Source of the DNA: Blasia pusilla
Lineage: Eukaryota
DNA length: 64,000 nucleotides
NCBI GenBank assembly: GCA_050084515.1
Contig: CM114271.1
Span: forward strand, 18,228,001 to 18,292,000
Direction of reading: 5' to 3'
Shown here: positions 4,866 through 55,084 of the stretch, one piece after another
Numbering within the stretch: the first letter of the stretch is position 1
Layout: the number at the start of each line of letters is the position of its first letter
Made by a program: the position numbers and the translations under genes
Notes under the pieces: model-generated
Database searches by the model: none
The model's input: the letters and a program-made list of their open reading frames with translations, nothing else
Told to the model about the DNA's origin: nothing

Positions 4866-5381
4866 TGTCACGTCTTTTAGGATAGATCGGTAAGATATAG
4901 TAGAGCGCCTTCTTGAGTAGTGAAGGACGGAGTCAAGAGGTTGAGGATGACCTACTGAGGCCTAGGGAAACTTGAGAGAGCAGGTTTCCCCTTCGTTTCG
5001 GCTCATTTGGAGGCATATAGAGGAACTTCCTATTTTAGGTAAGTACCATTTTGAGTATATGGTCAACTTTATATTTTTGGTAAGTGTCCATTGACCTCCT
5101 ACATCAGGTCAAGAACCAAGGAGGTGACTTGAGAGCATAGGTTACAACGGAGAGAGTTTGGGAGAGGGGAGGGGTATACGTCAAGGATAGAGAACTTGAG
5201 AGCTCATTCTCTCTTTGTTGAACCCCTTGGCATGAGGCGGCAGAGCTATGGTCTTGCTTGCCTTGTGTGGGTAACCCAAGCCTCTCATTAGAAGAGTAGG
5301 TTTGGTTTGACATTGAGAGAGACATGTGAGAGTGCACACATTTGAGAGCTATGGTGTTGAGAGAGATTGGATCTTAATTTA
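4866..5381 (+). repeat. Repeat A1 (family 1), ~515 bp
   Basis: Aligns by eye to 26793-27310 (reverse) and to the 5' parts of the solo units at 19995 and 42869. It is not followed by repeat B. Confidence 0.85.
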
Positions 5382-5939
5382 CAAAGAGAGAATGAGATGA
5401 GTGAGAGAGCTTCATGGGGGAGCTTGCTAGTCACTCACTAGTTTTGCAGGTTGGGGATTGTATTCCTTGTTTAGTGGTTCATGGGAGTGCTCACCGGAGC
5501 CAAAGCCACTCATTTTTTTATGTTTCCTTTGCCTATTTTTCGTGTGGAAGACTGGTGCGCGGAAGCGCTGCCCAATTTTTTATAGGGATTGAGTATGGGG
5601 GCGAATTTCCCCATGCAAGTGTTCTCGAGAGCATTATGCAGCTTGTTGATTTATGTTTCCACATGCTTTACAAAGTTTTTGGCAGAAATCAGTGCGGTAG
5701 TCGCTGCCAAATTTTGTGTAGGAGAAAAAGACATTGGGCTTTACGACAATCCTCATCAATTTTACTCGAATATTTGATTTAAAATGTTTTTGAACTTTGT
5801 CGTAGATCACAAAGTTGTGCATCGCTGTGCAATAGATAATGTACAATTTGGAGTTGCAAGCAAAAAGTTATGGTCAATCTTGCAAAACTGCCATTGCTAG
5901 GCAACTTTTAGGGTAAAATTGTTCAAACACAAAAGCAGT

Positions 5940-6150
5940 CGTCGCACCGCGGCAGCCCGTTGCCATCATAGTCACCATCAACAGTCCGCCATTGACGGTC
6001 AACCATCACCATCAATGGTCAACCATCATTGTCAACCATCGCCATTGTCAACCATCCATTGTCCATCGTCGGCCGCCGCCGCCTCTTAGCGTTGCTCAGA
6101 GCCGCGTTCGGCCGATGTCCATCCTTGGTTGCCATTGCCGCCATTACAGA
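5940..6150. repeat. Short degenerate tandem repeat (gtcaaccatcgccatt-like) in the 5' leader of element A
   Basis: Several 12-18 bp variant units are directly visible. Confidence 0.55.
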
Positions 6151-6989
6151 GTGGAGGGTCTTCCATGACGACTGTTGATTCTCTGACTTGCGCCGCCACC
6201 ACGTACTTTATTAAGGCCGCTACCGTCATTGCAATTTTGTCATCAACCAGTGATGGCAAGTGACCTCGAGTTATGATATTTGAGTTTTCATTTCATTCTA
6301 CTATATTGTGATTGGTAGCCGCTCGAGGACGATTGAGTATTGTGTCGTGATGCCCTTAGGCGCAACGCACCACCGATTGCCACGTCGTGCCGCTCCTGGC
6401 CATACCACACCGTCTCGATCGCCGAGCTGCTCCTTCACTAAGGAGCAGAGTGTGCGTATTGTTGATTGAGGAGGGTATGCCGCGGAGTGCCGCATCCCAT
6501 TATCAAGTGTCGTGCCGTTCTGTAGCCGTTCCGTGCTGCCATTGCCGCACCATACCACTGGATCCGCACAACATATTGAGGAGGTTTGAGCATCATCAAT
6601 ACGAGAGGAGTACGACTTGCTGATTGGAGGATTTGTCTTCACGATCGAGTTGGGATTGAGATTTGCAGTTGCCGAGGAGCGACATCAACATTATTGTCAA
6701 GTTACCCATGATGGTCTCTTACCCTGCACGTGTGAGGGAATTCTGGGTATTCGGAAGTTATTTGGGATATTGGGTTTCATGCTAATGTTGAGAGCACTGA
6801 TGACGTATGGGTTGAGGGGACATAGACCTGTCTGGGATGTCCAAAGTTGAGGATGGTTTATCGATGAGACTTAAGATCAGTTAATTTGCCGCACCACGCC
6901 GCTTGTTGCCGCACAACACACGTCTTGGTGAGAGAGTGTAGCTTGAGTGCCGTATGTTAGATAGAGTGATTGTATGATTACTCGCGAGG

Positions 6990-8200
6990 TTGAGAGTGAT
7001 CGTGTGAGAGGGGCACGATGGTCATCACGGCGTCCTTTCGAGACTTTGAGAGGCGAGGTGGTTTACTGGAGAGTAGCTCTAGAGGGTTTACGCGGAGTGG
7101 CGCGAGGTTTCGAGGGTCACCACATGCGGGACCACCTCGACCTCCTTCTGTGTCATCTTCAGACGAGGAGGAGGATGTAGAGGAGTTGACTAGTTCTTTG
7201 CCACTCACATTGAGTAGTCCCTCTTTGCTTGGGCGTCACGAGATGGATGGACATAGGTTCATCACCAATAATAGAGTTGCACGACTTCATGGTGATGTTG
7301 AAGGGCTAAGAACTCTAGAGAGTTCAACCCATTTACAGCATGGAGGAAGCCAGAAACAAATAGGGAAGGCAATGAGGGATGGAAACGGAATGTTGGTGAT
7401 GTTATTAACTGGAAGGCAATGGGAGAAATTGTTGATAACTCCTATTGCTGATGCTCAGGAGGAGCATGTGTCGAGTACGATGTTGGGGGCGGCCACGATG
7501 GTGTACCGTGCTCCGCTTTTTTCCTGCTTCCGATGTTATGACATTGGGAGTTATGCCCACCGAGGTTTTCCAGCTGGCCGCTACGGTATGTGAGTGTGGA
7601 GTTGAAGTTCCAACATCATGTTCAAAGGTGATTGCAGAGGAGGTGATGGACCTGCCCTTGGAGGGGATGCTTGAATCGTCCACGTCAGATTCATGGCAGG
7701 CTGCGGTTGCTAGGATGGCGGAGATGCCCGCTAGACCCGTGATAGAGTATGCCATGGCTTCTCCTGGTGATGTGTTGTTGGATAATCGGGGAGAGTTCTT
7801 CTAGTTGGTGAGTCCCGGAGGTAAATCTTTTAGTCCGCAACGCGTCTTGTTGGATTCAGGAGCGCAACCCCTATGTTGGGGAAAGTGTCATTCATGGGAT
7901 TGGGCTTGACGAGAGTCGATGTGGAGCGTTGTCCATTCTGGATGCAGACATCCTTGGATGGAGTGAGTACCACAAAGTATATCATTCGATAAGAGGTCAT
8001 GGTGAGGATTCTCCCGAGACATCCTACAGATGAGTCCGTGGTGCGAGCCAAGGCGATAGTGACTAATGTAGAGTCCTACGATGTATTGGTTGGTAAGCAG
8101 TGTTATACCCGATGGGGTTTTCCCTAGATTACCGGGAGGAGTGAGCGTCTTACAGACGAGAATGGTAGTCAGATGATGGGTGTCTTAGCTCATTACCCGT
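6990..8200 (+). pseudogene. Element A gag (internally deleted) and aspartic protease
   Basis: GFTRSGARFR...EEEDVEE matches the gag N-terminus of copies C and D. VFQLAATVCE is shared with C and D. Protease motif LLDSGAQP and YDVLVG. Confidence 0.75.
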
Positions 8201-8559
8201 TCGATTCACAGGTGCAATGATCAAGCGACGGCCAAGAGCGATGGCGACCTTAGCAGCATTTAGGAGTGCCATCACTTGGCCTAGTGATTTGATTGAGGGA
8301 CATATCCATGCAGAGGATACTCCCATTCCTCACATTTCTATGGTGAGGAGTGTCATGGTAGCCACATCAGTCCATGGAGGAGAGGTGCCGCTTTGGGGCT
8401 CGATTGAGGAGCTTCCACGCTTAGCTATTGAGCATGTGCAGACTACGTGGAGCAAGACATTTGCACCAAAGTGTGACGGGTCAGAGGAACCCCAAGTAGC
8501 CAGGAGTGCTGCTATGACCCCTTTGGACAACACCCCGATTTTGTGGTGCATCTCGGAGG

Positions 8560-9470
8560 AGGGTATTTAGGTGTTGGATCTCTTTGGAGGGCTCAGCACT
8601 GGGTTAGCTATTGTTTTGCAAGCTAGAGTACGCAAGCAGTAGTACCTATATGTGGAGATTGATGATGTTGCGAGGCGCGCTTCACTTCACCATGTGGCGT
8701 AGTTAGGCCTCCGTTTTCCCAACTTGTTGTCTACATCCGCCATTTAGGGTTACCAGAGTTCCCTACCGAGGAACATTTCATTTTTGGGGGCGTAGGATGT
8801 GGAGCGGGTAGGGACCATAGACTTTGTCATTGCTGGTTGGCCATGTCAGGGCCAGTCAAGTGCTAGATAGGTAGCGGATTAGCTGACTCTCGGTCCATGT
8901 TGTTTGGGAGATCATGCAGATCTTGCGACACTTGCAAAAGCATGAGTCTCGTCCTCTAGCATACATTCTGGAGAATGTGCCGATTTTGGGCGATTGGAGG
9001 TCCTGTGTGGTGACGAGTGCACATCAAGTGCGCGCATAGATCGGCTCGGCAGTTTTGTTGGATGCGGCAAGTGTGGGTTCACGAGCACATCGCCTGCGTC
9101 TTTGGTGGACCAACTTGGTGCCACATGAGGTGTTGCGGAGGACTTATGCAAGAGTGGAGCGGTCCATCGATCACATGCAGTGAGGCACGATGCTTGACCG
9201 CCGTTGACTGTGGTCAATAGGACTAGCATGCCACGAGTAGCCTTTCCCACATTGGTGAGTTTTCCTGCTTCCAATGCATTCAAGAAGGCAAGACCTGGCT
9301 TGGTTTGGGATGACCAAGTACAGAGGTTGGTGGAGCCCAACGCCGATGAGCGAGAGTAAGCGATGGGATTCCCCACAAGAGTGAAGGTAGTATCGTCACT
9401 ATTAGAGACGTCATGTCTTGGGTCATGCGATGGACCTAAAATGCTTGACATGGATTTTCAACTTAGGAGT
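8560..9470 (+). pseudogene. Element A C5 cytosine methyltransferase domain (DNMT3-like), with stop codons
   Basis: Motif I VLDLFGGLSTG (8571), II YVEIDD, IV IAGWPCQG (GWPCQ at 8835-8849), VI YILENVP (ENV at 8971), VIII RAHRLRLWWTN, IX ERE*AMGFP, X HVLG. Confidence 0.9.
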
Positions 9471-9899
9471 AGCTGAGCAGCGTTGTTTGAGGATGCGAAA
9501 GATCACAGTAGTTGCGTTGGTGAGCCCCATGCCTACCAAGACGGTTGAGGCAGTGGCTGGGGGCAAGACCTAAGGAGATCGACACACCATGGTGATCGGG
9601 AGAGATACCCTTGGACTTCTTGGGATGTTTTGCAAATACGTCGAGAGATGGTAGCCACAACATCAAGCGTGGTTTAGGGTACTGCATATGGAGATCAGAT
9701 TTTGCAATTGGATGCATAAGAGTGGTCGAGTTTCGTTGTTCAAGACGGGGTTGCATCATAGCAACCACCTATACCCGCGCCAGAGAGTACTACCGTAGTC
9801 ACGATGGAGACTTGGGAGCCATATATGGGCCCTAAGAGGACAGGAGGAGAGCAGCGCCGGATACATCAATTCCTAAGGAGTTATAGGAGTTGTTTTTCC

Positions 9900-12670
9900 T
9901 TTAGCATGCAAGATTTGGGTACGCTACATGGTCCAGGGATCCGCATTGAGTTGTCGAGTGACAAGTCAATCTTTTGACAATCCTACAGGTATAGTGACAT
10001 GGAGAGGGCTCTCATTCACAATAGGAGCCAGGACTTGGTTGGAGTAGGACTAGTGGAGATGTCATATGGAGAGTATGCATTTACCACTGTCATGCCCGCC
10101 AAGAAGGATGTGCATGACAACTGGATGGATAGGCGGATGTGTGGAGATTACCGACTTATCAATCGGCAGACAAAGTCCGATAGATATGCCATGCCTACCC
10201 CTGAGGAGATCTTTGATGCTATTGGGCATGCAAAAGTCTTCAGTTCGTTAGATCTTCCAACCGGATACCATCAGCTACCTATCAGATTGGAGGACAGGCA
10301 GAAGACGGCATTTTGGGGCATCGATCCTCAAGAGAAGGATTGTTTGTACTAGTGGCAATTCTTACCATTCGGGTTAAAGAGCGCCCCGGATTGAGTTTCA
10401 GAGGATCATGGATAGGATCTTGGCAGGTTTGGATTTTGCTAGGTGTTATATTGATGACATCGTAGTATTTAGCGCCACGGTTGAGGAGCATGAGCGACAT
10501 CTAGAAGAGGTGTTTTGACGATTGTTGTTACATGGGCTGAAGCTACATCTAGGCAAGTGCAAGTTCTTCTACAACTTGGTTGAGTACCTTGGTCATACAA
10601 TATACCCAAGGGGCCTTGGTGTGTAGCAAAAAAGATAGAGGCTATTTCACGCATTCCACGCCCTACAGATGTGAGTCGAGTTTGTGCATTCATGAGATTG
10701 GCGAACTTCTATCGACGGTACGTCAAGGGTTTCAGTTTGATAGCAAAGCCGCTAACCTTGCTGACCAAGGAAGATCAAGAGTGGCACTAGGGGAATGAGG
10801 AGGAGAGCATTTCAACTGCTCAAGGATAGATTGAGGTCCGCGCCTATATTGAGGATATCGATCAAGGGGCGTTCTTTCCAGTTTCATACCGATTGGAGCA
10901 TGTTGGGGCTTGGAGCTATGCTCACCCAACATGACAATGATGTTAGAGAGTTTTTGGTAGCTTATGCTAGTCGCTTGAACAATGATGCAGAGGCAAAGTA
11001 TAGCTCGTATGAGGGTGAGTGCTTGGCTATAGTGTGGGTGTCGTATATTTCAGGTGTTATCTATTCGGAAACCCCTTTACCATCATTACTTATCATCAAC
11101 CACTTAAGTGGTTGATGGAGTCTGACAAGCTTACAGGGAAGCTTGCGAGGTTGACTATTTTGTTGCAGGAGTATGACTTCCAAGTGATGCATAGACTTGT
11201 GACGCTCAACCAAGATGCAGATGGTTTGAGCCATAACCCATGCTTAAGTCAGCAAGATGTGACTGAAGCTCGTTGGCATGGTGAGAGTGATGAAGATTTG
11301 TGTCAGGATGGCATGCATCAGCCTATTTGGGCTTGCTAGCTAAGGAGAGCCAGATTGCTAAGACTTTGATGGTGAGGTCAGATGGAGAGTCCTTAGATCC
11401 AGAGGCCGGTGAGGAGACGACAAGTGGCCGAGATATTCACGACGATGGAGTGGTCTTGGAGTACTTGCGTACTGGCAGAATTGCAAGCACAATGGGTGCT
11501 AGAGAGCGGGATCGGATCCTACAGCGCTAGCGAGCCAGACGATTCCGGTGGGAGGGGACACACATGTTGTGAGTTTGGGAGGATGGTGTAGTGCCTCATC
11601 CTTCGCAGAGAGCGCCTTTGGTGCGTCATGCCCATGAGGAGTTGGGTCATTTTGGAGTGAAGTGGACGTACAACTTCCTCCAAATTCAGTATTGGTGGCG
11701 AGGCATGTAGACTCACGTTCAGTAGTTTGTTGCTAAATGCATAGTGTGTGATCAAGTTTGAGCATCATTCAATGCTCCAACTCCACATTTGCATCCACTT
11801 CCGATCATGGATTTAAGTTATAGATGGAGTTTGGATTTTGCAAGACCTTTGCCTTTGACGGAGCGCCATAGTTGTTATGTGTTGGTGATGGTCGAGCACT
11901 TCTCGAATCGGATAGAGTTGGTTGTATTTTCTAACAAAGCGAGTGAGGGAGTAGCGTATGCCTTCCTGGATCGAGTGCTGAGTCATTATGGCACACCAGC
12001 TGAGGTGTTGATAGACCAGGGTACAGAGTTTCGCGGAATGTTTCAGGCCTTGTGTGATCAAGCACTGATCAACCAACGCACCACTTTGCAAGATCATCCT
12101 AAGGCGGATGGACTAGCGGAGAGGGTTGTGCAGACGGTGAAGAGAGGATTGCGCAAATATGGCTTGCAGAGAGGTCACCTAGGAGATTGGGACCTTTGGT
12201 TGCCGTGGTTGGCGATGGGATACACATTCAGCATGCAGACATCCTTAGTATCTTTCTCACCGTACTTGTTGCTTTATGGTAGTGAGCCAGATTTACCTAT
12301 GGCCATTCGTCAAGATATTGATGAGGTGTTGAACCTTGATGACCTTTATGTATGGATGAGAGCATTTTCACACAGGGGTGAGTTGTTCTAGAGAGTGATG
12401 CCCATGGCGTTTGAGAACTTGGCGATTGTGCAACATCGGGATACATTGAGATATGCGACTATTCGGGGGGATGGTTATCAACCTACGATTCAAAGGTTTC
12501 ATGAAGGAGACTATGTCTACTTGCAGCAGACGGCACCCACGACGTTGGATGTGCTGCAGGGTGCACCATCTTGAGAGTGCGTGAGGTTTTTCCATCAAGT
12601 GTTCTCTTATTGGAGGGACGCGATGGTATGGTTTGGAAGGACCATGTGTGTAATTGCGCACCGTATCACC
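9900..12670 (+). pseudogene. Element A RT - RNase H - DDE integrase
   Basis: RRMCGDYR, SLDL..GYHQ, LPFGL and YIDD (RT). HTDWS, YSSYEGECLA and DADGLS (RNase H). HAHEELGH...C..C, WSLDF, IDQG and GLAERV (integrase). Confidence 0.9.
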
Positions 12671-12719
12671 TTCCAAACATTGACGGTACAATTGATCCAA
12701 GCTTAGCAGTAGTTCTTGC

Positions 12720-12866
12720 AAGCTTGCGATATATGTTGTGTGGTTCTGCCAATGGTGCAGCCATTATGCTAGTTTGTGATGGATGTTCGAGAGGATGGCA
12801 TATGGCATGCTTGACGCCACCTCTCACTAGGGTTCCTTAGGGACGATGGATGTGTCCCAGATGTAC
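12720..12866 (+). pseudogene. Element A C-terminal PHD finger
   Basis: YMLCG...MLVCDGCSRGWHMACLTPPL..VP*GRWMCPRC, a C4HC3 pattern with the first Cys mutated. Confidence 0.85.
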
Positions 12867-13050
12867 ATACAGTAGATAGTTCTACATTCCGACTTGTTTC
12901 TGTGACATGGATGACAAGAAGGCGACTAACGAAGGAGCCACATGAGCACCAAACCTTTTTGCTCTTAGCTTGTGAGAGATGTATGTCATGGTAGGTAGGG
13001 ATAGATGGCTATCTGGAGTTAGAGGGACCTAACCACCAGCTAGGGGGAGG

Positions 13051-13178
13051 GTTGGAAATATTTTGTTTCTTCTTGTCTCGTTGTTTGGATGCCATGAATT
13101 AGCGTGGGATCGTGTATGTTTGTCTGTGTGTTTGCTGACAGCGATGTATGTTGTGTAGCAATGTGTATGCGTACAACA
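13051..13178 (+). repeat. Repeat B (family 1), ~128 bp, 3' end of element A
   Basis: Matches 27313-27440 and 26697-26792 (reverse) and the 3' ends of the solo units. It is preceded by gttagagggacctaac and a G-run. Confidence 0.85.
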
Positions 13179-15500
13179 CACTAAAAAATGACATGGTTGT
13201 ATGGCCACATTTAGGAGATTGCACTTCCATTGGATATACTGACACCAACATAGAAACCTCGACATCAATGGCAAACTACCTGATTGGGGAAGTACATCAA
13301 TTCCCATATCTTGTTTCCAATGTTAGTATCATACATGTTCTATAATTTGATCATGAACCTATCTACTTTAACATGTTGGTCTCCAAAACCATCTAGAGGC
13401 CGTAGAAAAGTTTACTTTTCTGACCAAATGTCGATATACTTTCCTTCAAGAAAACAAAAGGGAAATTCATCACACTCATCAACATGGCTCTTACGTAGTG
13501 CTCACCCACAGTAAACATGATCGAGTTCAATGGCATCTTACATCAATGCTGCAAAGAAGTCTTACCTTTCCAACTATTCGGAGGCAAGAACATTAGTTCA
13601 AATTCAACATTCTTCTCCCAACTCTAGTTTGACAAGGATTGCAAAGAGGCCCACGTGGAGTTGAATCATTGGTTGAGGCCCCGGGGATCCACAATCTCCA
13701 CACATGTGACAGTTGTAGAACACTTACAAACGATTGGTACGTAGGAAGAAACAAAAATACATTGCCATCAAGATCATGGATTTCACAAAGCAAATGAAAT
13801 ACCAATTGCACTTGCACTAGAGAATACTCGTAAATAGATAAAATAACATTCCACTTCAAGATCTATAAATCTAGACTCACATAAGGTACCCAACTTTACC
13901 ACTCAAACACTACTACTCCCACCAATCTCAGGCCGAATGGGACCCGAGATCTACCGAGACCTCTTCACCATTGAGGACATTACATCAAGCCTCAGAAGGC
14001 TCCATAACAAATGAGAAAATAACATGGGGTGCCACGCTCAGATGTTCAAATTTGCAAGTGAGACAATTGGCTCGACCCTCACCAGAATGTTCAATACTAG
14101 AGTTCAGTAGGGATTCCCAACAGAGTGGCAAATCAATATAATCTACCCACTCTTCAAAGTTGGAGATCTTATAATACCATCCAAATGGAAAACTATCATT
14201 ATGAGCTCCCTTATGGCCAAATTGTATGGGCTTCTGCTCGAAAGGAAAATCAGCGACTGAGCTGAAGAAAAGAACGTGCGAGCCAGAGGACAAGAAGGTT
14301 TTCAACAACCATATAGCACCTTGGATCACCTTCTCACACTCCGAGTATTGATTGAAGAAACTTACAAGTCCAGAATTGGGTACAACCCCAATAAATTGTT
14401 ATGTTGTTTTCTGGACTTCAAGAAGGCATTCGACACAATTCCAAGAGTATTTCTTTGGAAACAACTTGAAGAGTTGGGTGTCCCACCACAACAACTTACA
14501 CCGATCAAGGTCTTATATGCTAAGGTGTTAGCACAAATTGCCACTAAGAAGGGCAGATCTAAAACTTTATCCTCCAACATTGGAATCAAACAAGGATGTC
14601 CCCTATCACCTACACTTTTTGGGCTCTACATTGATAAACTTGAGGAGATGCTCTTTGAAGTTAATGAAGCTCCACCAGAGATAGCATGTTGCCTCATCCC
14701 TGTGCTATTGTATGCACATGATATAATGTTGATGTCTAGAAACCACATAGGAGCTCCAACTCTACTTGAATGAACTCGCAAGCTTTTGCATCAAATCACG
14801 CATGGAAGTCAACTTGCTGAAAACAAAGATAATTGTCTTTGCATCACAGAGCCCTATAACACAAAGGTCACCTTCAACCAAGGATTGCAAAGTGAGAATA
14901 TAGAGATTGTGGGTAAGTACATACATGTGGGGGTACATCTTAAACCAAAAAAAGAATGGAGAACTAATGGAATTTGCAACAAGATCAATGCAAGATTGAG
15001 GGGTTTACACGTACACTGCAATCCAACTACAAAAGAGTGGAACTCTAGCATATTCCAAAAAACTCCATCCCTTCCTCGATCCCTTCAAAGCTCTTGTGAT
15101 CCCAGCCACACTCTATGCATTTGAGGTGTGGGGCCAGAGCCCCAAGGCATGGCCCTAAGGTCTAGAGGTCCCCCATAAACTCTTCATGCAATAGATTATA
15201 GGCATTAGGGGAACCACTCCTCACGACATTCTATTGGTTGAGTTTGGGAAGGTTCTAGTGGACATTCATGCACTTAAAAATATAATCACATTCCTCCAAC
15301 ATCTTCATGATATTTGAGAGGAAAATCCCAAGCATATATCTCTAATCCAGAGCCTTTGAGATTTCTAAACGTAGTGCATCTCTTAGGGAAAAAAATTGCA
15401 CTTTAACTGCAAGGAGTGGCTCATGAAATGGGGCAACTCAATCGATGATATGTCCAAGGCCACCAACTAGGACCTGGCTGAACAACTACACAACAATTAC
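13179..15500 (+). mobile_element. LINE ORF2 remainder (endonuclease C-terminus and RT), degenerate
   Basis: QEGF..YSTLDHL, CFLDFKKAFD, GIKQGCPLSPTLF and LLYAHD (degenerate YADD) in ORF 14276..14773. Confidence 0.85.
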
Positions 15501-17104: not shown

Positions 17105-18593
17105 TGACCTAGAGATATATCCACACATATGGATTACAAGAGATGGGGGCCCACACCGGAGTTCGGTCGGCCTCTAACTCTACAATCCGCTTGCTTTGCT
17201 GGGACATCTGCTCTACCAACAACTTCAACAAGTCCAACGTCTGACTTGACTCAATCGGTTCCCCTGAGTTTGGAGCCGATGGCCCCGCGGAAAGATTTTC
17301 CTCTGGAACATCCTCACGTCTAGCGTTCAACTCTTCGAGAGTCTCCGTCTCCTCCAAAGCAACACAATCCGGCATTGGTTCGACTCTCGGTTCACGTTGC
17401 TTGATTGGGCGCTTCTTGGGTTCTTCTCCCTCAATTGCCATCTTCAAGTCCACTCACTCATATCTCCTCCTTGTTTCTTGCGTTCCTCCTCAAGCGTCTG
17501 AGTCTAGCCGCTACCTTGAGTTTTCCCAAGGGTCCGGTTGATCCCACGACCCCAAGTTCTTGCTCACCAAAGATTTTCTCTGATATCACTTGTCGTGGGC
17601 CTACTCTCCTTGAACGTCAATCTCTAATGTTGCAAAAGCGTACGTTCAGTAGGACACGCTCTTATCGCCGACCTGCACATCCAAACGCACTCACGTTAGT
17701 CTAAATTTGGGTCAAGCGGCTTTCCAACTCACCAAGTCGTCAACTCGGCACCTCATCAAGCTCAACCTTCCTTACTTCCTAGGTTCCCAACATGGCAAGT
17801 CTTTCAAGACTTGGAACAGACTTCCTGGTTAGTCAAGGAACCTAAAACGGCACTTGCACGTCTAACGGTTCCAACTGTTCAACGAACCTCGTGCGAGTTC
17901 CTAACCTGGACCCAAGTAATTGAATCGCGGGTTGGAATCCAAGAGGGATCCCTAAGAATCACCTCAATAGACTTGGTTCAGGTTTTCAAGCCCAACTCCC
18001 AAACTCCCAATCCGTTCCATGCCCTTGAGCCGCCCTGCGGCGCCCAAAGTGGGGTTCGAGTCCCAAGCACCCTTGGAGACCTTCCCCCTTACTAGTACTT
18101 TGGGATCTCCAATAACCCCTCCCCTTTAGAAAAGGATGGTCGGGCCTTTCATTGTGGCCCTCAACCCGACTCTACTTACAGTTGTTTTTGGGTTGTTTCT
18201 CAGCCGCTACTCATGCGTTTGCAAAGATCTTTAGTGCATTTGAATTGGCTTTCCATAAGCTTTCCAACGCACTCTTATTTGTTCCAAACGCATATTGGAG
18301 CTAAAAGTTATGGCCATAAATACAGTCGGAAACTCTCAAACGCTAGTGACATCTCAAATCCGGATTCCTTCCTTTGGCGACCCACTTCCTAGACTTGACC
18401 CTCTCAAGTCTTGTTCCGCGTTTGGTCCAAGTTTCTCAGTCGCAACCACAACATATGAAATGCAAAGCCTTGCTTGCGTCTCGTTTCTTGTCTCTTCTCC
18501 GAGACCACTCCAACGCGTAAACCATCCTAGCGTGAGCCCGCTACTGTTCCGATGTTCCGCTTTGGCGCTTGTTTGGTCATGAGGGTCGTGACA
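17105..18593 (-). mobile_element. Truncated conventional LTR retrotransposon: 5' LTR (17591-18593), tRNA-iMet-type PBS and gag start
   Basis: TG...CA unit of about 1 kb, homologous to 33031-34026. On the minus strand, CA-ag-TGATATCAGAG is one mismatch from the TGGTATCAGAG PBS. Gag-like ORF 17109..17453. Confidence 0.8.
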
Positions 18594-19994
18594 ACGGAAG
18601 TCTTTGGTTGTATTTGTTATATTCATGTTCATTCTAAAAATATGTTTAAAATTAGATCCCAAATGTGAAACATGTATCTTCATTGGTTATGATGATGGAA
18701 TTAAGGGATATAAGTACTACATTCCATCCTCTAGGCATCTTATTATTAGCAACGATGTTATTTTTTATAAGCTGAAATCATGGTATGCTCCATCTGAGCC
18801 TATTCCACCTCTAAATTCAGCTTTTGAGGGGGAGAATATGACTATAAACCAATAAACATTGCCTAAAACTTTCCCAAGTACTAGTGTAGGATTAGGATAG
18901 GTCATAGATTCTTCAGTTAAATATGTCAATCTATAGTCAGGAATAGTACATGTTCAATCTATTGATATTAGCCATAGCTCAAGTCAGATGTCAGAGGCAT
19001 CCACCTCCAAACAACAACTTCATAGATCAAGTTGAGTTACATCCTATTAATAAATTCAAAAATGAAGGATTTCGTGCAACACATCATGCATATATGATGA
19101 CTATCCTTAAAAAATAGGAACCGAGTTGTTTTGAAGACGTTGCAAGCAATGTCAAATGGACTAAAGCTATGGAGCAGGAGCTTAATGCATTTAGATATCA
19201 ACAGACATGAGAGTTTGTTGATATATCTTCCGGTAAGGAAGTTATTGGTTGCAAATGGGTTTATAAAATCAATTGTAATTAAGACGGTACAGTGAACAAA
19301 TACAAAGCCAGATTGGTAGCTAAGAGCTATTCACAACAATATGGGGATTATGAGGAGATATTTAGCCTTGTTGCAAAGATTACGATTACGAGAACAATTG
19401 TTGCAATTGCATTACGTAAGTATTGGAGACTACATCACATGGACGTCAAGAATGCCTTATTGAATAAAGATCTATATGAGGAGATATATGTGACTCAACC
19501 ATCTCAATATGAGTATCCAGAGTTTTTATTCCGTGTATACAAGTTAAAGAAAGCTCTATACGGGCTCAAGCAAGCTCCAAGAGTTTGGTATTGTAAGATT
19601 ATATACGTCCTACAAGAGTTGGACTTTAGGGTACGTGATTATGACTCCTCGCTATATATCTTGAGAGGACAAGGTCATATGGTTATTATTTTATTGTATG
19701 TTGGCGACGTCTTGATCACTCGGAGTACGGAGTACTTAGGATATAGTATAACAAGTCAAGCTAAAGTTAAGGCATAATTTGATATGAAGGACTTACGAGA
19801 ACTCAAGTATTTCCTTGGTGTTGAGTTAATCAAGGTTTGAGAGAGCATGTAGTTATTATAACAATAATATGTTTTTTACATGCTTTCAAAATAGGGTATG
19901 AAAACTAGTAATCCAATCTTTATATCGTTGGAACAGAGTGTGAAGCTAAGAGTGGATGAAGGAGAGTTGCTAGAAAATTATAATATGTACAATC

Positions 19995-21005
<1,011 letters not shown>

Positions 21006-24014: not shown

Positions 24015-25441
24015 ATGAACAATATGCCCCTTGGAAATTATGATCGAGCTCCTAAGTTTGAGCATGATCCCGTGCCTTTACAAGTTCCATTTCATTTGTT
24101 GACTTCTGATTGTTGTGAGATAGTTTTCAGCAAGGTGGAGGGCATGAGTAGCCATGAGAGAAGCTATGAATTTGGGAGTTTGTTGGATACTGTTGTTGGC
24201 TTGAATCATCTTGGAGGCCTGGAATGCGGAGCAGAGGGCCTAAAGGTTGGCCGCTCCTACAAGAAGCAAGACCATGTATGGGGAAATATTCATCCTTTGG
24301 GTGATGGTGAATGTGCACTTACTATATTAGATTATTCCCTAGTATCTTCCAATGAGTTAGTTGTTAATGCTCTTAAGGATGGTTTGGATGCAACTAGAGT
24401 TTTGTTGTGTAGGTTACAAATGTCTCCAAGTAGTTCGTTGCCTGTAGCGAGAAAGAAGTGCTAAACCTCTCCTTGGGAAGTGGAAGCAGAGACGTGGCCT
24501 GATACAAATATTATGCTTGAGGAGCAAAGAGAGCATGTAACCACAATAGGTCCTTGCCTAGAAGCGGACTTCCATGAATGGGAAGACCCAGAGGATGATC
24601 TAAATCATATAAATGAGTGGGTGATGAATGAAGACATTATTTTTTATGATGTGATTCAAAATACAGGTCATATAGACGGTGTGGAGAACTTTGAAATTCA
24701 TGCATCTACAAAGCTCAAAACTTTAGGCCAAGAAGTGAGACACATTCTAGCATATGTGGTGTCAGATTTAACTAATGTAAGTTGTTCTCAAAAAGTCGAT
24801 CCAACCGTGACATGCCAAGATAAGATTCTTTACAAATCCACTCTAGTAAGTCAATCGGTAGGCAATTTACAATTGTCAAAGGATAGGCTTACTAGAGTGA
24901 AACAAGTTTTGTACTACAACATTGGTAAGAGAAAGGAACGCGAAGAGGGCTTTCCTACATGTTTCATTGATGTTGGTTTAGATTGTGTAGTTGCTTTTGA
25001 GATAACATATAATTTAGGCCCTTCAACAAGATCAACTAGGGCAAAAGGATGTGAGAAGCAAGGGAAAGGGATAAAGAAAGGAATGGTGATAGTATCTGAG
25101 CCAATAGTACAAAAGGATTTTTGGTTGGGAAGGATTGTTATGATCAGACGAAAGTTTGGTGCACAATGGGGCAAGCATCGAGCTCCTATTGATTTGCTAG
25201 ATAGGGATGCACCTACTATTGGTCAAACATTTTGCGTATGCAATTTTTGTTTAATTGGTATAAATTCACAAGTTATAACAAAACTCAATTCATATATGAC
25301 ACAACTGATTTGCAATGGATTGATATTGAGATGGTTATATTGAATGTAATATTAACTATGAAAGAGGGGCTTGAGCGCATCTATGTATTAGATCCAATTG
25401 ATAGGCAAGCAATGGATGATTATGTGCACACAATGACATAG
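24015..25441 (+). pseudogene. Probable DNA transposase C-terminal remnant (P-element/THAP9-like)
   Basis: Near-continuous ~470-codon frame with one stop and one frameshift. LTSDCCEIVFSKVEG resembles the P-family catalytic-E motif (QDxxExxFSxxR..GG). Confidence 0.4.
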
Positions 25442-26696: not shown

Positions 26697-29600
26697 TGTC
26701 GTGAGCATAGATGTCGCTACACAACATACATTGCTATAACCGAACATACACACAAACACGTACGAGACAAGAAGTATCGAAATATCTCCAATTAAATCAA
26801 GTGGATCCAATCTCTCTCAACACCATAGCTCTCAAAATGTGTGCACTCTTACATGTCTCTCTCAATGTCAAACCAAACCCACTCTCCTAATGAGAGGCTT
26901 GGGTTATATTCATAAGGTAAGGGACCCTAATTTCGCCGCCTCGTGCCAAGAGGTTCAACAAAGAGAGAATGAGCTCTCAAGCTCTCTCTCCTTGAGGTAT
27001 ACCCCTTTCCCTTTCCCAAGCTATCTCCTTGGTAACCTATGCTTGCATATCACCTCCTTGGCTCTTGACCTGCTATAGGGGGTTAAAGGAAAATTCCCAA
27101 AGTGGGAAGTCAACTATACCAAATAGGGAAACTTACCCAAAATAATAAGTTTTAATATATGGCCCCCAAATGAGCCGAAACGAAGGGGAAAGATGCTCTC
27201 GTAGGTTACCCGTGGCCTCAGCAGGTCATCCTTGACCTCTTGAGGTTGTCCTCCAGTATCTCCGAAGGCGCTCTACTAGATCTTGCCGATCTATCCTAAA
27301 AGTCATGACAGTTGTCGGACGCATACACATCGCTACACAACATACATCGCTGTCACCAAACATACACACAAACACGCATGATCCCATGCTAACTCATGGC
27401 ATCCAAAAAAAAAGATAAGAAGTACCAAAATATCTCCAATCGCCCCCCTAGTTGGGGGTTAGGTCCCTCTAACTCTAGATAGTCACCTATCCCTACCTAC
27501 CATGATATACATCTCTCGGACGCTAAGAGCAAAAAGGCCGAGTGCTCATGTGGCCACATCGTTTGTCACCTTCTTGTCATCCATGTCACAGACACAAGTC
27601 AGAACCTAGAACTACCTACCATATATACATCGCGGACACATCCATCGTCCCTCAAGAATCCTAGTGAGAGGTGTCGTCAAACATGCCATATGCCACCCTT
27701 GCAAACACCTATCACAGGCTACCATACTGGCTGCACCATGGGCAGAACCACAACTTATATCACAAGCTTGCAGGAACTACGGCTAAGCTCGAATCAACTC
27801 TATCGTCAATGTTCGGAAGATGACATGACGCATGGTTACGCACATGGTCCTTCCAAACCATACCTTCGCGTCCCTCCAATAAGAGAACACCAGATGGCAA
27901 AACCTCACGCACTCTCAAGATGGTGCGTCATGCAGTCACATCCAATATTGTGGGTACCGTCTGCTCCAAGTAGACATAGTCTCCTTGATGAAACCTCCCG
28001 ATAGTAGGTGGATAACCACCTCCCCGAATAGTCGCATACCTCCACGTATCCCGATGCTGCGCAATCGCCAAGTTCTCAAACACCATGGGCATCACTGTCC
28101 GAAACAACTCAACCCTGTGCGAACATGCTTGCATCCATACATCACGGTCATCAAGGTTCAACACCTCACCAACATCTCGACGAATGGCCGCAGGGAAATC
28201 TGGCTCTCGGCCATAAAGCAACAAGTATGGTGAGAAAGACGCTAAGGATGTATGCCTGCTGAATATGTATCCCATCGCCAACCACGGCAAGTGGAGGTCC
28301 CAATCTCCTAGGTGACCTCTCTGCAAGCTATACTTGTCCAATCCTCTCTTCACCGTCTGCAAAACCCTCCCCGCTAGTCCATCCGCCTTAGGTTGATCTC
28401 GCAAAGTGGTGTGGTGGTCAATTAGTGCCAGATCACACAAGGCCTGAAACTCCCTGCGAAACTCTATACCTTGGTCTCTCAATATCTCAGCTGGTGCACG
28501 TAATGACTCAACACTCAATCTAGGAAGGCAAACGCTACTCCCTCACTTGCTTTATTAGGAAATGCAACCAACTCTATCCACTTTGAGAAGTGCTTGACCA
28601 TCACCAACACATAACGATTATGGCACTCCGTCAAAGGCAAAGGTCTTACAAAATCCAAACTCCATCTAAAACCTAAATCTCTGATCAGAAGTGGATGCAA
28701 TTGTGGAGTCGGAGCATTGAACGATGCTCGGACTCGGTCACACACCATGCACCTGGCAACAAACTGCTGAACGTCAGTCTGCATGCCTTGCCACCAATAC
28801 TATATCTGGAGCAAGTTGTACGTCCGCTTCACTCCAAAATGACCCGACTCTTTGTGGGCATGACGCACCAAACGTGCTCTCTACGAAGGATGAGGCACTA
28901 CACGCACTCTACCATCCTCCCAAACTCACAACATATGTGTCTCCTCCCACCGGAACCGTCTGGCTCGCCGTAGGATCCGATCCCGCTCTCTAACACCCAC
29001 TCTGCTCACGACGCTGCCACTACGCAGGTACTCCAAGACCACTCCATCGTCATGAATATCTCGGCCACCTGTCATCTCCTCACCGGACTTTGGATCTAAG
29101 GACTCTCCATCATACCTCGCCATCGAAGTCTCAACAATTTGGCTCTCCATAGCCAACAAGTCCAAATAGGCTGATGGGTGCCATCTTGGCACCAACTCCT
29201 CATCATTCTCACCATGCCAACGAGCTCTAGTCGCATCTTGCTGACTCAGGCATGGATTATGGCTCAAACCATCTGCATCCTAGTTGAGCGTCCAAGGTTT
29301 ATGCACCACCTGGAAGTCATACTCCTCCAACAAAAGAGCCCACCTCGCAAGCTTCCATGTAAGCTTGTCGGACACCATCAACCACTTAAGTGGCTGATGA
29401 TCAGTAATGATAATAAAGGGGTTTTTGAATAAATCACATCTGAAATGTGCAAAAATCCACACCGCAGCCAAGCACTCACCTTCATACGAGCTATACTTTG
29501 CCTCTGCAGCGTTGTTCGAGCGACTAGCGTAAGCCACCACGAACTCTCTACCATCATTGTCATGCTAGGTGAGCACGGCTCCAAGCCCCAACATGCTCCA

Positions 29601-30875
29601 ATCGGTATGCAACTGGAAAGGACGCCCCATGATCGCTCTCCATAATATGGGCGCGGACGTCAATATGTCCTTGAGAAGGTTGAAATGCTCTCTACTGCTC
29701 ATCCCCCCAATTCCACTCCTGATCCACCTTGGTCAGCAAGGTAAGGGGCTTAGAAATCGAACTGAAACCCTTGACGTACCGTTAGAATCCTCGGCTCATA
29801 TCGGTTGGGCGTGGAATGCGTGAAATAGCCTCTATCTTTGTGTGATGCACCCCAAGGCCCCTTGGGAATATCATATGACCAAGGTAATCAATTAGGTCGT
29901 AGAAGAACTTGCACTTTCCTGGATGTAGCTTCAGCTCATGTAATTGCAATCGTCGAAACACCTCCTCTAGATGTCGCTGATGCTCTTCAACCGTGGCGCT
30001 AAAGACTACGATGTCATCAATATAACACCTAGCAAGATCCAGACCTGCCAAGATTGTATCTATGACCCTTTGAAACTCAGTCGGGGCGTTCTTTAACCCA
30101 AATGGTAAGAAACGCCATTGGTACAAACTATCCTTCCTGTGAGGATCGATGCCCCAAGATATCGTCTTTTGCCTGTCCTCCAATCTGATAGGCAACTGAT
30201 GGTATCTGGCTCAAAGATCTAATGAACTGAAGACCTTTGCATGCCCAATAGCATCAAAGATCTCCTCAAGGGTGGGCATGGCATACCTATCTCACTTCAT
30301 CTTCCAATTGATAGGTCGGTAATCTCCACACATCCGCCTATCCGTCCAGTTGCCATGCACATCCTTCTTGGCGGGCATGATAGTGGCAGATGCATACTCT
30401 CCATGCGACGTCTCCACTAGTCCTGCTCCAACCAAGTCATGGCTCCTACTCTGAATCAAAGCCCTCTCCATGTCAATGTACCTGTAGGATCGTTGGAAGA
30501 TCGGCGTGTCGCTCGAAAACTAAATGCGGATCCCTGGACCCTCAAGCATATCCAAGTCATGCATACTAAATGCAAAGCAACTCCTATAACTCCTCAGGAA
30601 CTGATGAATCAGGCGCCGCTCTCCTCTTGTTAACTTAGGGCCCATATTTTGCTCCCAAGTCTTCATCGTGACTACGGTAGTACTCTCCGCCGCGGGTGTA
30701 GATGGTTGCTATGGTGCAACCCCATATCGGACAACAGAACTCAACTGCTCTCCTGCAACCAACTGCAAAATTGGATCTCCATGTGCAGTACCCGGAACTA
30801 CGCTCGATGTTGTGGCTACCATCTCGTGGCGTACCTGCAAAACATCCCAAGAAGTCCAAGGGTGTCTCCCCGATG
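26697..30875 (-). mobile_element. Element B (family 1): 5'-truncated RT-RH-INT-PHD with full B1-A2-B2 3' terminus
   Basis: ORFs 29782..30195 (LPFGL, CYIDD), 29280..29540, 28515..28784 and 27928..28518. PHD at ~27630-27780. B1 27313-27440, gt 27311-27312, A2 26793-27310, B2 26697-26792. Confidence 0.9.
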
Positions 30876-33030: not shown

Positions 33031-34026
33031 TGTCGTGCGACTACTCTCCTTGAACGTCAATCTCTAGTGTTGCGGAAGCGTACGTTCAATAGGACATGCT
33101 CTCATCATCGACGTGCACCCAAACGCACTCACATTAGTCTGGCTTTGGGTCAAGCGGCCTTCCAACCCACCGAGTTCTCAACTCAACATTTCATCCAGCT
33201 TAACCTTCCTTACTTCCTAGGTTCCCAACACGGCAAATCCTTCAAGACTTGGAACAGACTTTCTGGTTAGTCCAGGAACCTAAAACGGCACCTGCGCGCC
33301 TAGCGGTTCTAACTGTTCAACGGATCTCATGCGTGTTCCTAACCGGGACCCAAGTAATTAAGTCGCGGATTGGAATCCAAGAGGGATCTCTAAAAATCAC
33401 CTCAATAGACTTGGCTCAGATTTTCAAGCCCAACTCCAAACTCCTGATCCGTTCCATGCCCTTGAGCCGCCCCATGGCGCCCAAAGTGGGGTTCGAGTCC
33501 CAAGCACCCTTGGAGACCTTCCCCTTACTATTACTTCTGGGGTTCTCCAATAACCCCTCACCTTTGGAAAATGATGGTCGGGCCCTTGATTGTGGCCCTA
33601 AACCCGACTCTACTTACAATCATTTTCGGGTCGTTTCTCAACTGCTACTTGTGTGTTAACGGAGATCTTTAGTGAGTATGAACCCGAATTTCCACAAGCT
33701 TTCCAACGCATCCTTAATTGTCCTAAACGTATCTCGGCGCTAGAAGTTATGGCCATAAATACAGTCGAAAACTCTCAAACGCTAGTAGCATCCCAAATCC
33801 GGATTCCTTCCTTTGGCAACGTGGACCAAACGCGGATCAAATATTGATCCGCGTTTGGTTCAGGTTTCTTAATCGTGACCACAACATATGAAATGCGAAG
33901 CCTCGCTTGCGTCTCGTCTCTTGTCTCTTCTCCAAGACCACTCCAACGCGCAAACCATCTTAGCGTGAACCTGCTAGTGTTCTGATGTTTCGCTTTAGCA
34001 CTCGTTTGGTCATGAAGGTCACGACA
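33031..34026 (-). mobile_element. Solo LTR, same family as 17591-18593
   Basis: TG...CA, collinear with 17591-18593, with 5-bp flanks attca/tttca. Confidence 0.85.
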
Positions 34027-36783: not shown

Positions 36784-37533
36784 TCAAGTGGTCAACATCA
36801 TTTCCTGTGGCGAGCGTTTGTGTACGTATTTCAGGGCGTTCCCTACAAGTGGAAAGTGCAGGCCACAAGACGACTGGGTGGTAGGCTTACATGTCATGGT
36901 GAAAATTCTGTCTTCGGAGAAGCATACATAAACGGACGGATCTTTTTCATCACGCAGTCGGAGAGCCTTCAGATTTTCTTCCAACTCCCTTGTGGCTGGC
37001 TCCAACTGATCCCATGCGATCCAATTCGAAGAATCCGTCCCATGCGAAGCGAATTCTGCCAGCTTCATGAGAAACACCGAATTCTCAAAGAGAGTCTTCA
37101 CCAGCTTCAACTGAGCCGTCAGCTGCTTGAGCCGGAACAACTGACGACCACTCAGAGACCCTTCCGAGACACTGATGATAGTTTTCTCAACTTCGAGAAT
37201 GCGATGGACGAGTTTTGTTATCTTCTTGTCGACCGGGGCATTGCTGGTGACGGCCTTATTTGCCGAGCGGGTCCAAAAAATGTCTTCACTTTCCAGGATG
37301 CCACTCCTGGCGATAAAATCTCTTTCATAGCTTGATATCCTCGTAAGACTCAAACCCTGTATTCCTGTAGGGGTGTCTAGCGGTAGCTTGAATATCGTTG
37401 ACAACACAAATACGGCCGTCACGATGGCCAAAATTTTGACTATTGTGCACATCGAGAAAGTAGGCATGGTAGCACTCGGATAGAGAGCACTCAGCGCTGA
37501 CGCCTGAAGTATAGAAATGAGAAAAGGAAGCAC
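36784..37533 (-). CDS. Putative host gene exon: N-terminal hydrophobic segment and helical/coiled-coil region, function unknown
   Basis: 249-codon open frame in CpG-retaining non-repetitive DNA, with hydrophobic IVKILAIVTAVFVLSTIF. Likely start ATG at ~37467 and possible donor GTAAG at ~36890. Confidence 0.4.
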   Translation of the reverse strand: MLPFLISILQASALSALYPSATMPTFSMCTIVKILAIVTAVFVLSTIFKLPLDTPTGIQGLSLTRISSYERDFIARSGILESEDIFWTRSANKAVTSNAPVDKKITKLVHRILEVEKTIISVSEGSLSGRQLFRLKQLTAQLKLVKTLFENSVFLMKLAEFASHGTDSSNWIAWDQLEPATRELEENLKALRLRDEKDPSVYVCFSEDRIFTMTCKPTTQSSCGLHFPLVGNALKYVHKRSPQEMMLTT

Positions 37534-41725: not shown

Positions 41726-42070
41726 GCTACATCTTAGTTAGTCGATATGTAGAATTCAACCGCGTCGACGACATAGAGGGTCAGTGGGTAGTTTGGGTGT
41801 AACTTTGTTCAGAGATGTTGGATGAGGTTGACAACTTGTCCATTGTGTGAGGAATGTCATTTTTGGCGATTTTCCTACTTTGATATTTCTAGCCAAGTAA
41901 CCCGTTGATGAGTCAAAGATCAATGGGTAACTTGTGCTCCATCATATGTTAATGTTTTGAGGCTATTTTTCGGGAAAGAGAATTTTTGGCTCTTCCAAAG
42001 GCTAAAAGAGAGGGACAGATGGCTTTCCCAAGCCATCTTTCCATCATGTTGGTAAGGGGTTACTAGCATA
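41726..42070 (+). repeat. Terminal-repeat-like sequence of a third subfamily, copy 1
   Basis: Similar to 44802-45350 (cttagttag..gggtagtttgggtgtaactt..ccgttga..ctttcccaagccatctttcc) and directly precedes a DNMT fragment. Confidence 0.6.
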
Positions 42071-44800: not shown

Positions 44801-44801
44801 T

Positions 44802-48358
<3,557 letters not shown>

Positions 48359-55052: not shown

Positions 55053-55084
<32 letters not shown>

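Follow-up and report, generated by a model that had tools for sequence, protein, structure and literature searches.

The 64,000 nucleotides analyzed here (the window; Blasia pusilla contig CM114271.1, positions 18,228,001 to 18,292,000, forward strand) contain five decayed copies of a Ty3/gypsy-type retrotransposon that carries a DNMT3-like C5-cytosine methyltransferase domain (Gypsy-DNMT), along with two isolated repeat units of the same element. Cytosine methylation is the main way in which plants silence transposons, and a transposon with a de novo methyltransferase of its own would therefore reverse the usual roles. The interval 4866–13178, which the initial annotation had singled out, is one copy of this repeated element (copy A, plus strand), and both of its bounds match real repeat boundaries. 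Using copy A as a BLASTN query against the window, we found four further copies (B to E). Domain order was determined by tblastn of two Marchantia proteins, P0006 and P0010, onto the window, and motifs were located by a six-frame regular-expression scan together with three-frame translations. The features are as follows, where A and B followed by a numeral denote the long and short terminal repeats, DNMT the methyltransferase domain, PR the protease and RT the reverse transcriptase.

4866–5373, plus strand: 5′ repeat A1 of copy A, starting TGTCACG; 82% identical to 27310–26804 and 80% to 42869–43325
7517–8121, plus strand: aspartic protease region of copy A, LLDSGA at 7847, frameshifted (tblastn of P0006/P0010, motif scan)
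8562–9585, plus strand: DNMT3-like C5 cytosine methyltransferase of copy A, interrupted by 7 in-frame stops and by 3 or more frame changes
9759–9767, plus strand: in-frame TAG then CAACCA between DNMT and RT of copy A (CARYYA type I readthrough context)
9798–11300, plus strand: RT and RNase H of copy A (tblastn of P0010; Pfam RVT_1 on 9978–10349 at E = 2.4e-4, below cutoff)
11396–12479, plus strand: DDE integrase of copy A (Pfam rve, E = 5.7e-11 on 11762–12388)
12736–12837, plus strand: PHD finger at the integrase C-terminus of copy A (Pfam PHD, E = 1e-6 on 12505–12837)
13042–13178, plus strand: purine run (AGGGGGAGGG) then repeat B (13052–13178) of copy A, without the A2-B2 seen in other copies
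19992–21001, plus strand: isolated A-B unit with an expanded internal tandem array (about 20161–20900)
26697–30874, minus strand: copy B, 5′-truncated, with TAG-CAACCA at 30711, RT-RNase H-integrase-PHD, B1, A2 and B2
42025–42832, plus strand: DNMT fragment of copy C, GWPCQ at 42145, RLWWTN at 42407, 5 in-frame stops
42869–43501, plus strand: A-B unit within copy C, inserted between its DNMT and RT
43750–48340, plus strand: remainder of copy C, rearranged: TAG-CAACCC at 43750, RT fragments (43808–44797 and 46443–47402), a microsatellite and integrase (47599–48312)
48358–48939, minus strand: 3′ end of copy D (B1, A2, B2), with the purine run AGGGGGGCGAG just upstream of B1
49115–50260, minus strand: integrase core and PHD finger of copy D, one 382-aa open frame (Pfam rve 4.7e-11, PHD 2.6e-6)
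50420–51966, minus strand: RT and RNase H of copy D (tblastn; Pfam RVT_1 8e-23 on 50912–51430)
52009–52017, minus strand: in-frame TAG (52017–52015) then CAACCA in copy D
52270–53196, minus strand: DNMT3-like domain of copy D, 3 in-frame stops
53418–56325, minus strand: leader of copy D, Gag with two zinc knuckles (54953, 54857) and protease (tblastn of P0006 residues 1–809, motif scan)
56327–63950, minus strand: copy E, with Gag (from 63564), PR, DNMT (60955–59945), RT-RNase H (59666–57916), integrase and repeat B (56434–56327); junction stop lost

The methyltransferase domain spans roughly 340 codons and is present in four of the five copies (A, C, D and E). The order PR-DNMT-RT-RNase H-integrase was recovered in copies A, D and E. 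Gag lies upstream of PR in D and E, with two zinc knuckles in each by motif scan, and most of it is missing from copy A. The initial annotation had placed the methyltransferase between PR and RT in A, C and D and before RT in E; the position between PR and RT holds for A, D and E but not for copy C, where tblastn with P0006 and P0010 detected no PR and only the DNMT followed by RT (from 43808), so that the domain is there merely upstream of RT. Copy C is rearranged, with the 633-nt A-B repeat sitting between its DNMT and RT. Its two separate RT fragments fit either a rearranged copy or two nested copies, and a long (TG/CA)n-type microsatellite occupies about 44950–45420 (plus strand) within it. 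For copy B, tblastn returned RT, RNase H and integrase only, and its 5′ truncation falls within the tail of the DNMT region.

Each of the five copies is a pseudogene, and the longest stop-to-stop frame anywhere in the window is 382 aa. Read along the reference proteins, the methyltransferase is broken by several frame changes and by in-frame stops, of which copy A has 7, C has 5, D has 3 and E has 1. These copies are dead relics, of value as evidence only.

Repeat architecture and element class

The element qualifies as Gypsy by its PR-RT-RNase H-integrase order, its Gypsy-type RT_RNaseH domains and its DDE (rve) integrase. Pfam recognized RVT_1, rve and PHD in open fragments of copy D and rve and PHD in pieces of copy A, at the E-values listed above. 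Pfam assigned no family to six of ten window fragments in the first set (both C-terminal DNMT pieces among them) or to five of ten in the second set, the one with the copy A pieces; the protease and Gag pieces were among the fragments left without a family.

Instead of two equal long terminal repeats, the element has the arrangement A1-internal-B1-A2-B2, with no B after A1. In copy B, the internal region is followed by B1 (27440–27313), A2 (27310–26804) and B2 (26799–26697), and copy D ends likewise in B1 (48939–48832), A2 (48831–48464) and B2 (48463–48358). Copy A has A1 (4866–5373) at its start and a single B (13052–13178) at its end. The same order and spacing of domains were found in 80 metagenome loci, which come from few related data sets and probably from one or a few host species. 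Among 12 long loci examined, two (L056 and L073) show the full A1-internal-B1-A2-B2 arrangement and a third (L006) shows A1 and A2 before the locus ends. Repeat A starts with TGTCATGAC and ends in CA, giving TG...CA ends, and a run of purines (AGGGGGG...) immediately precedes B1 in copies A, B, D and E and in L056 and L073.

The statement that the copies belong to subfamilies with different terminal repeats held for one repeat and not for the other. The long A repeat of copies A and B has no BLAST similarity to that of copy D, the two having in common by eye only the first bases (TGTCATGAC), and A2 of copy D (48831–48464) has no other copy in the window; the short B repeat, however, is common to all copies.

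Two sets of direct repeats of this kind, present in window copies B and D and in L056 and L073, are DIRS-like. No tyrosine recombinase (Pfam Phage_integrase) was found in the window or in the relatives described below, where rve was found instead; the integrase is of the DDE type, and the element is therefore not DIRS. Isolated A-B units would arise if A1 recombined with A2, and an element of the form of copy A if B1 recombined with B2. The second event agrees with joints in the DNA contigs from one run that skip about 476–483 nt between B2 and B1, albeit with short sides. In the isolated unit at 19992–21001, a tandem array (20161–20900, plus strand; period 8–14 nt, 74 overlapping 300-nt matches) is placed between an A part (19992–20249) and a B part (20879–21001). 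Copies E and D adjoin head to tail at 56325–56327, the B repeat of E being joined straight to the leader of D with no A repeat between, which we read as a later rearrangement.

The methyltransferase domain and its lineage

The C5-methyltransferase motifs quoted in the initial annotation were all located in the scan and translations. LDLFGG occurs at 8574 (A), 53196 (D) and 60896 (E), and the VE.D motif reads YLYVEID in copy A. GWPCQ is at 8835 (A), 42145 (C) and 60640 (E), copy D having GWPC and then a stop. ENV is present in A, D and E, and RLWWTN lies at 9097 (A), 42407 (C) and 52673 (D). ERAMGF follows at 52380 (D) and 60080 (E), with ERE*AMGF in copy A, and VLG(H/Q)AMD is found in A and D. 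Motifs I, IV (PCQ), VI (ENV), VIII (RxR), IX and X thus stand in the unrearranged order of DNMT3, unlike that of DRM; DRM chains align to motifs I–IV of the query only, through their C-terminal half. The Pfam search proposed at the outset gave a match of PF00145 (DNA_methylase) to a 174-aa open fragment of copy E that is well above the cutoff (E = 2e-9, 37.8 versus 22 bits), and relatives match this model too.

For family assignment, we used P0001, a relative of 368 aa that consists of the DNMT only. Against PDB sequences by phmmer, P0001 matched DNMT3A first (6e-12), followed by DNMT3B, DNMT3C, plant DRM, bacterial M.HaeIII and M.HhaI, and DNMT2. A 48-member family profile gave DNMT3A at 2.7e-26, DNMT3B and DNMT3C at about 6e-24, DRM at 4e-14, M.HhaI at 6e-8 and DNMT2 at about 5e-5, with no DNMT1-type or CMT chain in PDB at E ≤ 0.01. 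An AlphaFold2 model of the domain has a mean pLDDT (predicted local distance difference test) of 92 and a pTM (predicted template modeling score) of 0.89. Foldseek searches with this model returned DNMT3A, DNMT3B and DNMT3C only among the matches listed (32, to rank 50), with template modeling scores by target of 0.80–0.84 for isolated methyltransferase-domain chains at about 20–22% identity. The motif IV Cys is 100% conserved among the 266 family domains, the ENV Glu 98–100% and the HRxR Arg 93–99%, in both of the clades described below, and motif I and motifs IX/X are also kept in both. The domain is DNMT3-like by sequence and predicted fold, and is predicted to methylate DNA. It matches host DNMT3A, 3B and 3C best, in sequence as in fold, and has their motif order; unlike them, it has no adjoining PWWP or ADD domain, is embedded in a retrotransposon polyprotein and has diverged to about 20–22% identity.

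The copy E fragment, used as a query, matched 43 proteins at up to 70% identity. Those with a named source are from Marchantia polymorpha, Calypogeia fissa, Riccia sorocarpa and three Sphagnum species, and these best matches would by themselves suggest a bryophyte, probably a liverwort, as the source. In Marchantia P0006 (1278 aa), Gag, protease (LLDSGAQ) and DNMT follow one another and the protein then stops, while P0010 and P0019 have the DNMT N-terminal to RVT_1 and RNase H. With P0001 as a HMMER query, 4268 clusters were recovered at E ≤ 1e-3, of which 269 reached E ≤ 1e-30; many are polyproteins of 1000–3400 aa. Two layouts occur among these relatives: Gag-PR-DNMT-RT-RNase H-integrase, as in the window, and RT-RNase H-DNMT-integrase-PHD. 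A FastTree phylogeny was built from the 266 DNMT domains, comprising 31 with the DNMT upstream of RT, 179 with the DNMT after RNase H and 56 DNMT-only fragments. All 31 domains of the former layout fall into one 59-tip clade (SH-like support 99) that holds none of the 179 of the other layout, so that a single branch parts the two and the layout switches exactly once on this tree. The 59-tip clade includes the Klebsormidium nitens protein GAQ93235.1 (P0116; Pfam zinc knuckle, aspartyl protease and DNMT) and four Closterium proteins, and the bryophyte sequences nest inside it. The sister clade holds proteins of Scenedesmus, Haematococcus and Monoraphidium, names that come from exact look-ups of a few tips. 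Six sister-layout proteins from outside the window (P0050, P0066, P0072, P0095, P0281 and P0294) have the DNMT between RNase H and integrase, and a PHD finger after the integrase.

A known element matches this description closely. KnitGypsy-Dnmt3 of K. nitens, as described in the available portions of de Mendoza et al (2018; PMC5890265), has an unrearranged Dnmt3 domain within the Pol of an element with Gypsy domains, few copies, a Ka/Ks below 0.2 and (legend of Fig. 4c) direct repeats in a DIRS-like A-coding-B-A arrangement; the available portions of two later papers speak of Gypsy-DNMT3 of streptophytes. So far as that text goes, the element in the window has in common with KnitGypsy-Dnmt3 the DNMT3-type unrearranged domain in a Gypsy polyprotein, the DIRS-like repeats and purifying selection (see below). 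GAQ93235.1, possibly one of the published KnitGypsy-Dnmt3 copies, falls in the same DNMT clade. Considering the common DNMT clade, domain order and DIRS-like repeats, the element is therefore probably a bryophyte member of the streptophyte Gypsy-DNMT3 lineage (KnitGypsy-Dnmt3) and not a new kind. The link to charophyte elements raised by the initial annotation has thus become closer than was supposed, with a K. nitens protein in the same clade and a DIRS-like repeat layout as well. Two differences stand out: the host here is a bryophyte land plant and not a charophyte alga, and copy number in the source organism is apparently very high, compared with the few copies given for K. nitens in the available text of PMC5890265. 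More than 160,000 contigs of one DNA run, likely from the source organism, lie on copy D at ≥90% identity, with a summed word depth in the tens of thousands, and the family is therefore extremely abundant in that organism.

Other systems are more distant. The chlorophyte RT-RNase H-DNMT-integrase-PHD elements, represented by the proteins of Scenedesmus, Haematococcus and Monoraphidium and by numerous metagenome ORFs, have a homologous DNMT (35–48% identical to P0001), Gypsy RT, RNase H, rve and a PHD finger after the integrase, and differ from the window copies in having the DNMT between RNase H and integrase and not between protease and RT. SymbioDIRS-Dnmt3 of Symbiodinium, as described in the available text of PMC5890265, likewise has a DNMT3-type domain within Pol and A-coding-B-A repeats; it is, however, a DIRS element with a tyrosine recombinase, where the window element has rve and Gypsy RT/RNase H. 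The same text proposes cDNA methylation for SymbioDIRS-Dnmt3 and reports CG methylation activity in yeast.

The kind of element is thus already known (streptophyte Gypsy-DNMT3, 2018), whereas its presence in land plants and Closterium, the sister clade, the PHD finger and the conserved stop were not found in the literature searched. No paper on retrotransposon-borne DNMTs in bryophytes or other land plants was found, nor any that mentioned the Marchantia gene identifiers looked for, most subscription journals lying outside coverage, and the remark that this is not a characterized land-plant system stands within the same coverage. Nor was anything found on a Closterium occurrence, a chlorophyte sister clade, an integrase PHD or a stop with readthrough context, some of which the supplements of PMC5890265 and PMC12344493 may already show. 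The published plant-lineage example so far, to judge from the available text of PMC5890265, is one charophyte alga with few copies. The relatives described here indicate that the lineage lives on in land plants, in Marchantia (with intact gene models) and Sphagnum, and also in the alga Closterium, with a sister form widespread in chlorophyte algae. Its occurrence in a model liverwort with intact gene models therefore makes its function testable in a genetically tractable plant.

We examined selection by mapping the codons of each copy to reference proteins through the locally best tblastn segment and computing Nei-Gojobori values. Between subfamilies (A or C versus D or E, and A versus C), the DNMT has pN of 0.26–0.31, pS of 0.67–0.77 and pN/pS of 0.38–0.42. 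The Jukes-Cantor-corrected dN/dS is 0.13–0.19, computable in three of the five between-subfamily pairs as dS is saturated in the others. The corresponding pN/pS is 0.28–0.40 for RT-RNase H and 0.52–0.62 for PR and linker. For D versus E, a young pair, the DNMT gives a pN/pS of 0.65 and a corrected dN/dS of 0.63, as expected if much of the D-E divergence is post-mortem. On these rough figures, the DNMT evolved under purifying selection between subfamilies, similar to RT-RNase H, and the neutral value near 1 that was to be looked for did not appear. Together with the same domain order in three window copies and in liverwort, Sphagnum, Closterium and Klebsormidium relatives, this constraint bears out the proposal that the domain is retained by the family and is not a one-off capture.

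Coding layout and possible roles of the methyltransferase

Marchantia P0006 ends about 60 residues past motif X, and copy D has a TAG (52017–52015) at the homologous place, 51 nt before the first RT residues and in the same frame. We surveyed this junction in 53 sequences, metagenome loci and window copies, whose RT match starts at the first residues of the query. A stop lies exactly 15 codons upstream of the RT match in 48 of the 53 (34 TAG, 14 TAA); of the other five, one lacks a stop and four show it at a distance of 13, 14, 16 or 20 codons. Directly after the stop, CAACCC or CAACCA is read in 46–50 of 51 sequences (the first five positions agree in 50, 49, 49, 49 and 48 of 51, respectively). 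In the window, TAG CAACCA is found in copies A (9759), B (30711) and D (52017) and TAG CAACCC in copy C (43750), and the site is lost in E, leaving the stop in four of the five copies.

In gammaretroviruses, a UAG between gag and pol is read through. The type I readthrough signal of tobamoviruses consists of UAG and CARYYA directly after it (PMC5382211, available portions); copies A, B and D agree with it in full, and copy C and most metagenome loci, with TAG or TAA followed by CAACCC, agree in five of six positions. As in the tobamovirus signal (so far as described in the available portions of PMC5382211), an in-frame UAG-CAACCA parts an abundant upstream product from the polymerase. Unlike in tobamoviruses and in the gammaretroviral gag-UAG-pol, the stop stands here after protease and DNMT and not after Gag, and readthrough is a candidate proposed from sequence. 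Open fragments join Gag to PR in metagenome loci L066 and L014 and PR to DNMT in L013, L021, L052 and L053. The conserved stop and these joined fragments suggest that ORF1 (open reading frame 1) encodes Gag-PR-DNMT and ORF2 RT-RNase H-integrase-PHD, the two being connected by occasional readthrough. The domain was initially described as part of pol; it would instead be the C-terminal part of ORF1, parted from RT by the conserved in-frame stop.

At the other end of the putative ORF2, the C-terminal 72 residues of the open integrase frame in copy D are matched in PDB by the PHD fingers of CHD4, KMT2C/D, DPF2/3, ATXR5, PHF21A, KDM5A/B, UHRF1 and AIRE. Several such PHD fingers read the unmodified H3 tail (H3K4me0), as does the ADD domain of DNMT3. 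By analogy, the PHD finger of the element probably steers its integrase to chromatin with unmodified H3 tails. Separately, a comparison with the Chlamyvir clade as another carrier of a PHD finger was dropped, as the available portions of PMC3350952 and PMC6317226 give it a chromodomain.

An intact element would thus consist of repeat A, a leader, ORF1 (Gag with two zinc knuckles, PR and DNMT), UAG-CAACCA/C, ORF2 (RT, RNase H, integrase and PHD), a purine run and B-A-B. In active relatives, ORF1 would be translated to Gag-PR-DNMT, and occasional readthrough of the leaky UAG, as in gammaretrovirus gag-pol and the tobamovirus replicase, would give Gag-PR-DNMT-RT-RNase H-integrase-PHD. Every chain that contains Gag would in this way bring the DNMT into the virus-like particle, where the protease would release the enzyme from the polyprotein. 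This placement of the DNMT in Gag-PR before a candidate leaky stop, with a PHD finger on the integrase, opens hypotheses on dosage, packaging and chromatin targeting. The likeliest job of the packaged enzyme, which we put forward tentatively, may be de novo methylation of the element's own new cDNA or of its fresh insertion. Methylation of the cDNA before integration, as put forward in the initial annotation, is the role that the discussion in the available text of PMC5890265 favors for DIRS elements. Taken as a whole, a broader reading, which we regard as possible and still rather doubtful, is that of one ancient green-plant Gypsy lineage, pre-dating the colonization of land and reaching very high copy number in bryophytes, that carries a DNMT3 writer and an integrase PHD reader. 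In streptophytes, the writer would sit at the C-terminus of the Gag-PR ORF before the leaky UAG, be packaged at Gag-level amounts far above those of RT and integrase, write 5-methylcytosine on the element's own cDNA when active, and add to the de novo methylation of bryophyte genomes.

Several points weigh against the main reading, that of a streptophyte Gypsy-DNMT3 element with a Gag-PR-DNMT ORF1 before a leaky stop. The DNMT tree was made with FastTree only, is unrooted and holds no host DNMT3, DRM, CMT or MET1 references. The synonymous sites are saturated (pS 0.67–0.77) and codons were chosen by similarity to a reference, and the dN/dS values are therefore rough and biased downward. The observed/expected CpG ratio of the copies (0.52–0.70), compared with 0.59, 0.66 and 0.83 in three flanks, indicates a depletion no stronger than in two of the three; we had considered CpG depletion as a sign of self-methylation and rejected it, the copies not being distinct from the flanks. 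No intact long ORF was found in the window or the 80 metagenome loci, where the longest with a domain match is 508 aa, so that the ORF1 and ORF2 given here are composites of overlapping open fragments and of NCBI gene models, which possibly include predicted introns. Not every member of the lineage has the stop: P0306 (2138 aa) and P0057 (2188 aa), both deeper relatives, are open from Gag through integrase. Moreover, since the metagenome loci come from few related data sets, the 48 concordant stops are not independent, and most of these loci have CAACCC, CAACCA occurring only in window copies A, B and D. Finally, no primer-binding site was recognized in the element copies, and no convincing target-site duplication was seen around copy A, both isolated A-B units, copy D or L056 and L073.

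Methylation of cDNA also has a rival in the nucleus, possible if somewhat unlikely, in which the DNMT acts on integrated DNA, either the new insertion with its flanks or other loci, thereby either damping the element's own transcription and sparing the host or helping the element blend into host heterochromatin. The available discussion in PMC5890265 lists nuclear action as a possibility, the presence of a PHD chromatin reader on the same element points to business on nucleosomal DNA, and the DNMT3 enzymes that the domain resembles act on chromatin. On the other side, the position of the DNMT inside the Gag-PR polyprotein predicts packaging, and hence a place beside the cDNA.

It is improbable that the domain is no longer a DNA methyltransferase in this family and instead methylates RNA, binds nucleic acids or acts as a structural spacer. 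RNA methylation was raised by de Mendoza et al (PMC5890265, available portions) for a LINE-borne DNMT that failed to methylate DNA in yeast, and in most members of the present family Pfam matches the motif IV–VI core only. Nevertheless, motif I, the motif IV Cys (100%), ENV, HRxR and motifs IX/X are conserved in both clades and the whole 325-residue predicted fold superposes on DNMT3A/B/C, and the DNMT2-type tRNA enzymes score far lower than DNMT3.

More improbable still is a capture of the bryophyte DNMT from a host DNMT3 independently of the Klebsormidium element. Recurrent independent captures are documented in other lineages (PMC5890265, available portions), and host DNMT3 sequences, which could reveal a nested host gene, are absent from our tree. 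Against this, the K. nitens, Closterium and bryophyte proteins fall in one clade with SH-like support of 99 and the same CCHC-PR-DNMT order, and the unusual A...B-A-B repeat layout is common to both the K. nitens and the bryophyte elements. Chance juxtaposition, whether of a host DNMT fragment with an unrelated retrotransposon beside or within it or through a chimeric assembly, has nothing in its favor beyond the heavy decay and rearrangement of the copies, and is refuted by the recurrence of one order and spacing in copies A, D and E, in the 80 metagenome loci and in proteins of six named genera.

Other features of the window

Every copy shows a strong excess of G over C on its coding strand in 2-kb bins; the GC skew ranges from +0.15 to +0.21 for copy A and from −0.20 to −0.27 over the minus-strand copies D and E. 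Contigs of 250–580 nt with 90–97% identity occur across copy D in two runs guessed to be RNA; as these could be DNA, we drew no inference on expression. Just downstream of copy A, 14261–14773 (plus strand) is an open RT fragment (Pfam RVT_1, E = 5e-17) that shares no similarity with any copy of Gypsy-DNMT; it probably belongs to a non-LTR (long terminal repeat) element. A separate repeat family, unrelated to Gypsy-DNMT, is represented by two copies at 17678–18604 and 33116–34037, which are 85–88% identical and about 15.4 kb apart. Two open frames among the longest in the window, 24465–25343 (plus strand, 292 aa) and 36784–37554 (minus strand, 256 aa), matched no Pfam family at E ≤ 0.01.

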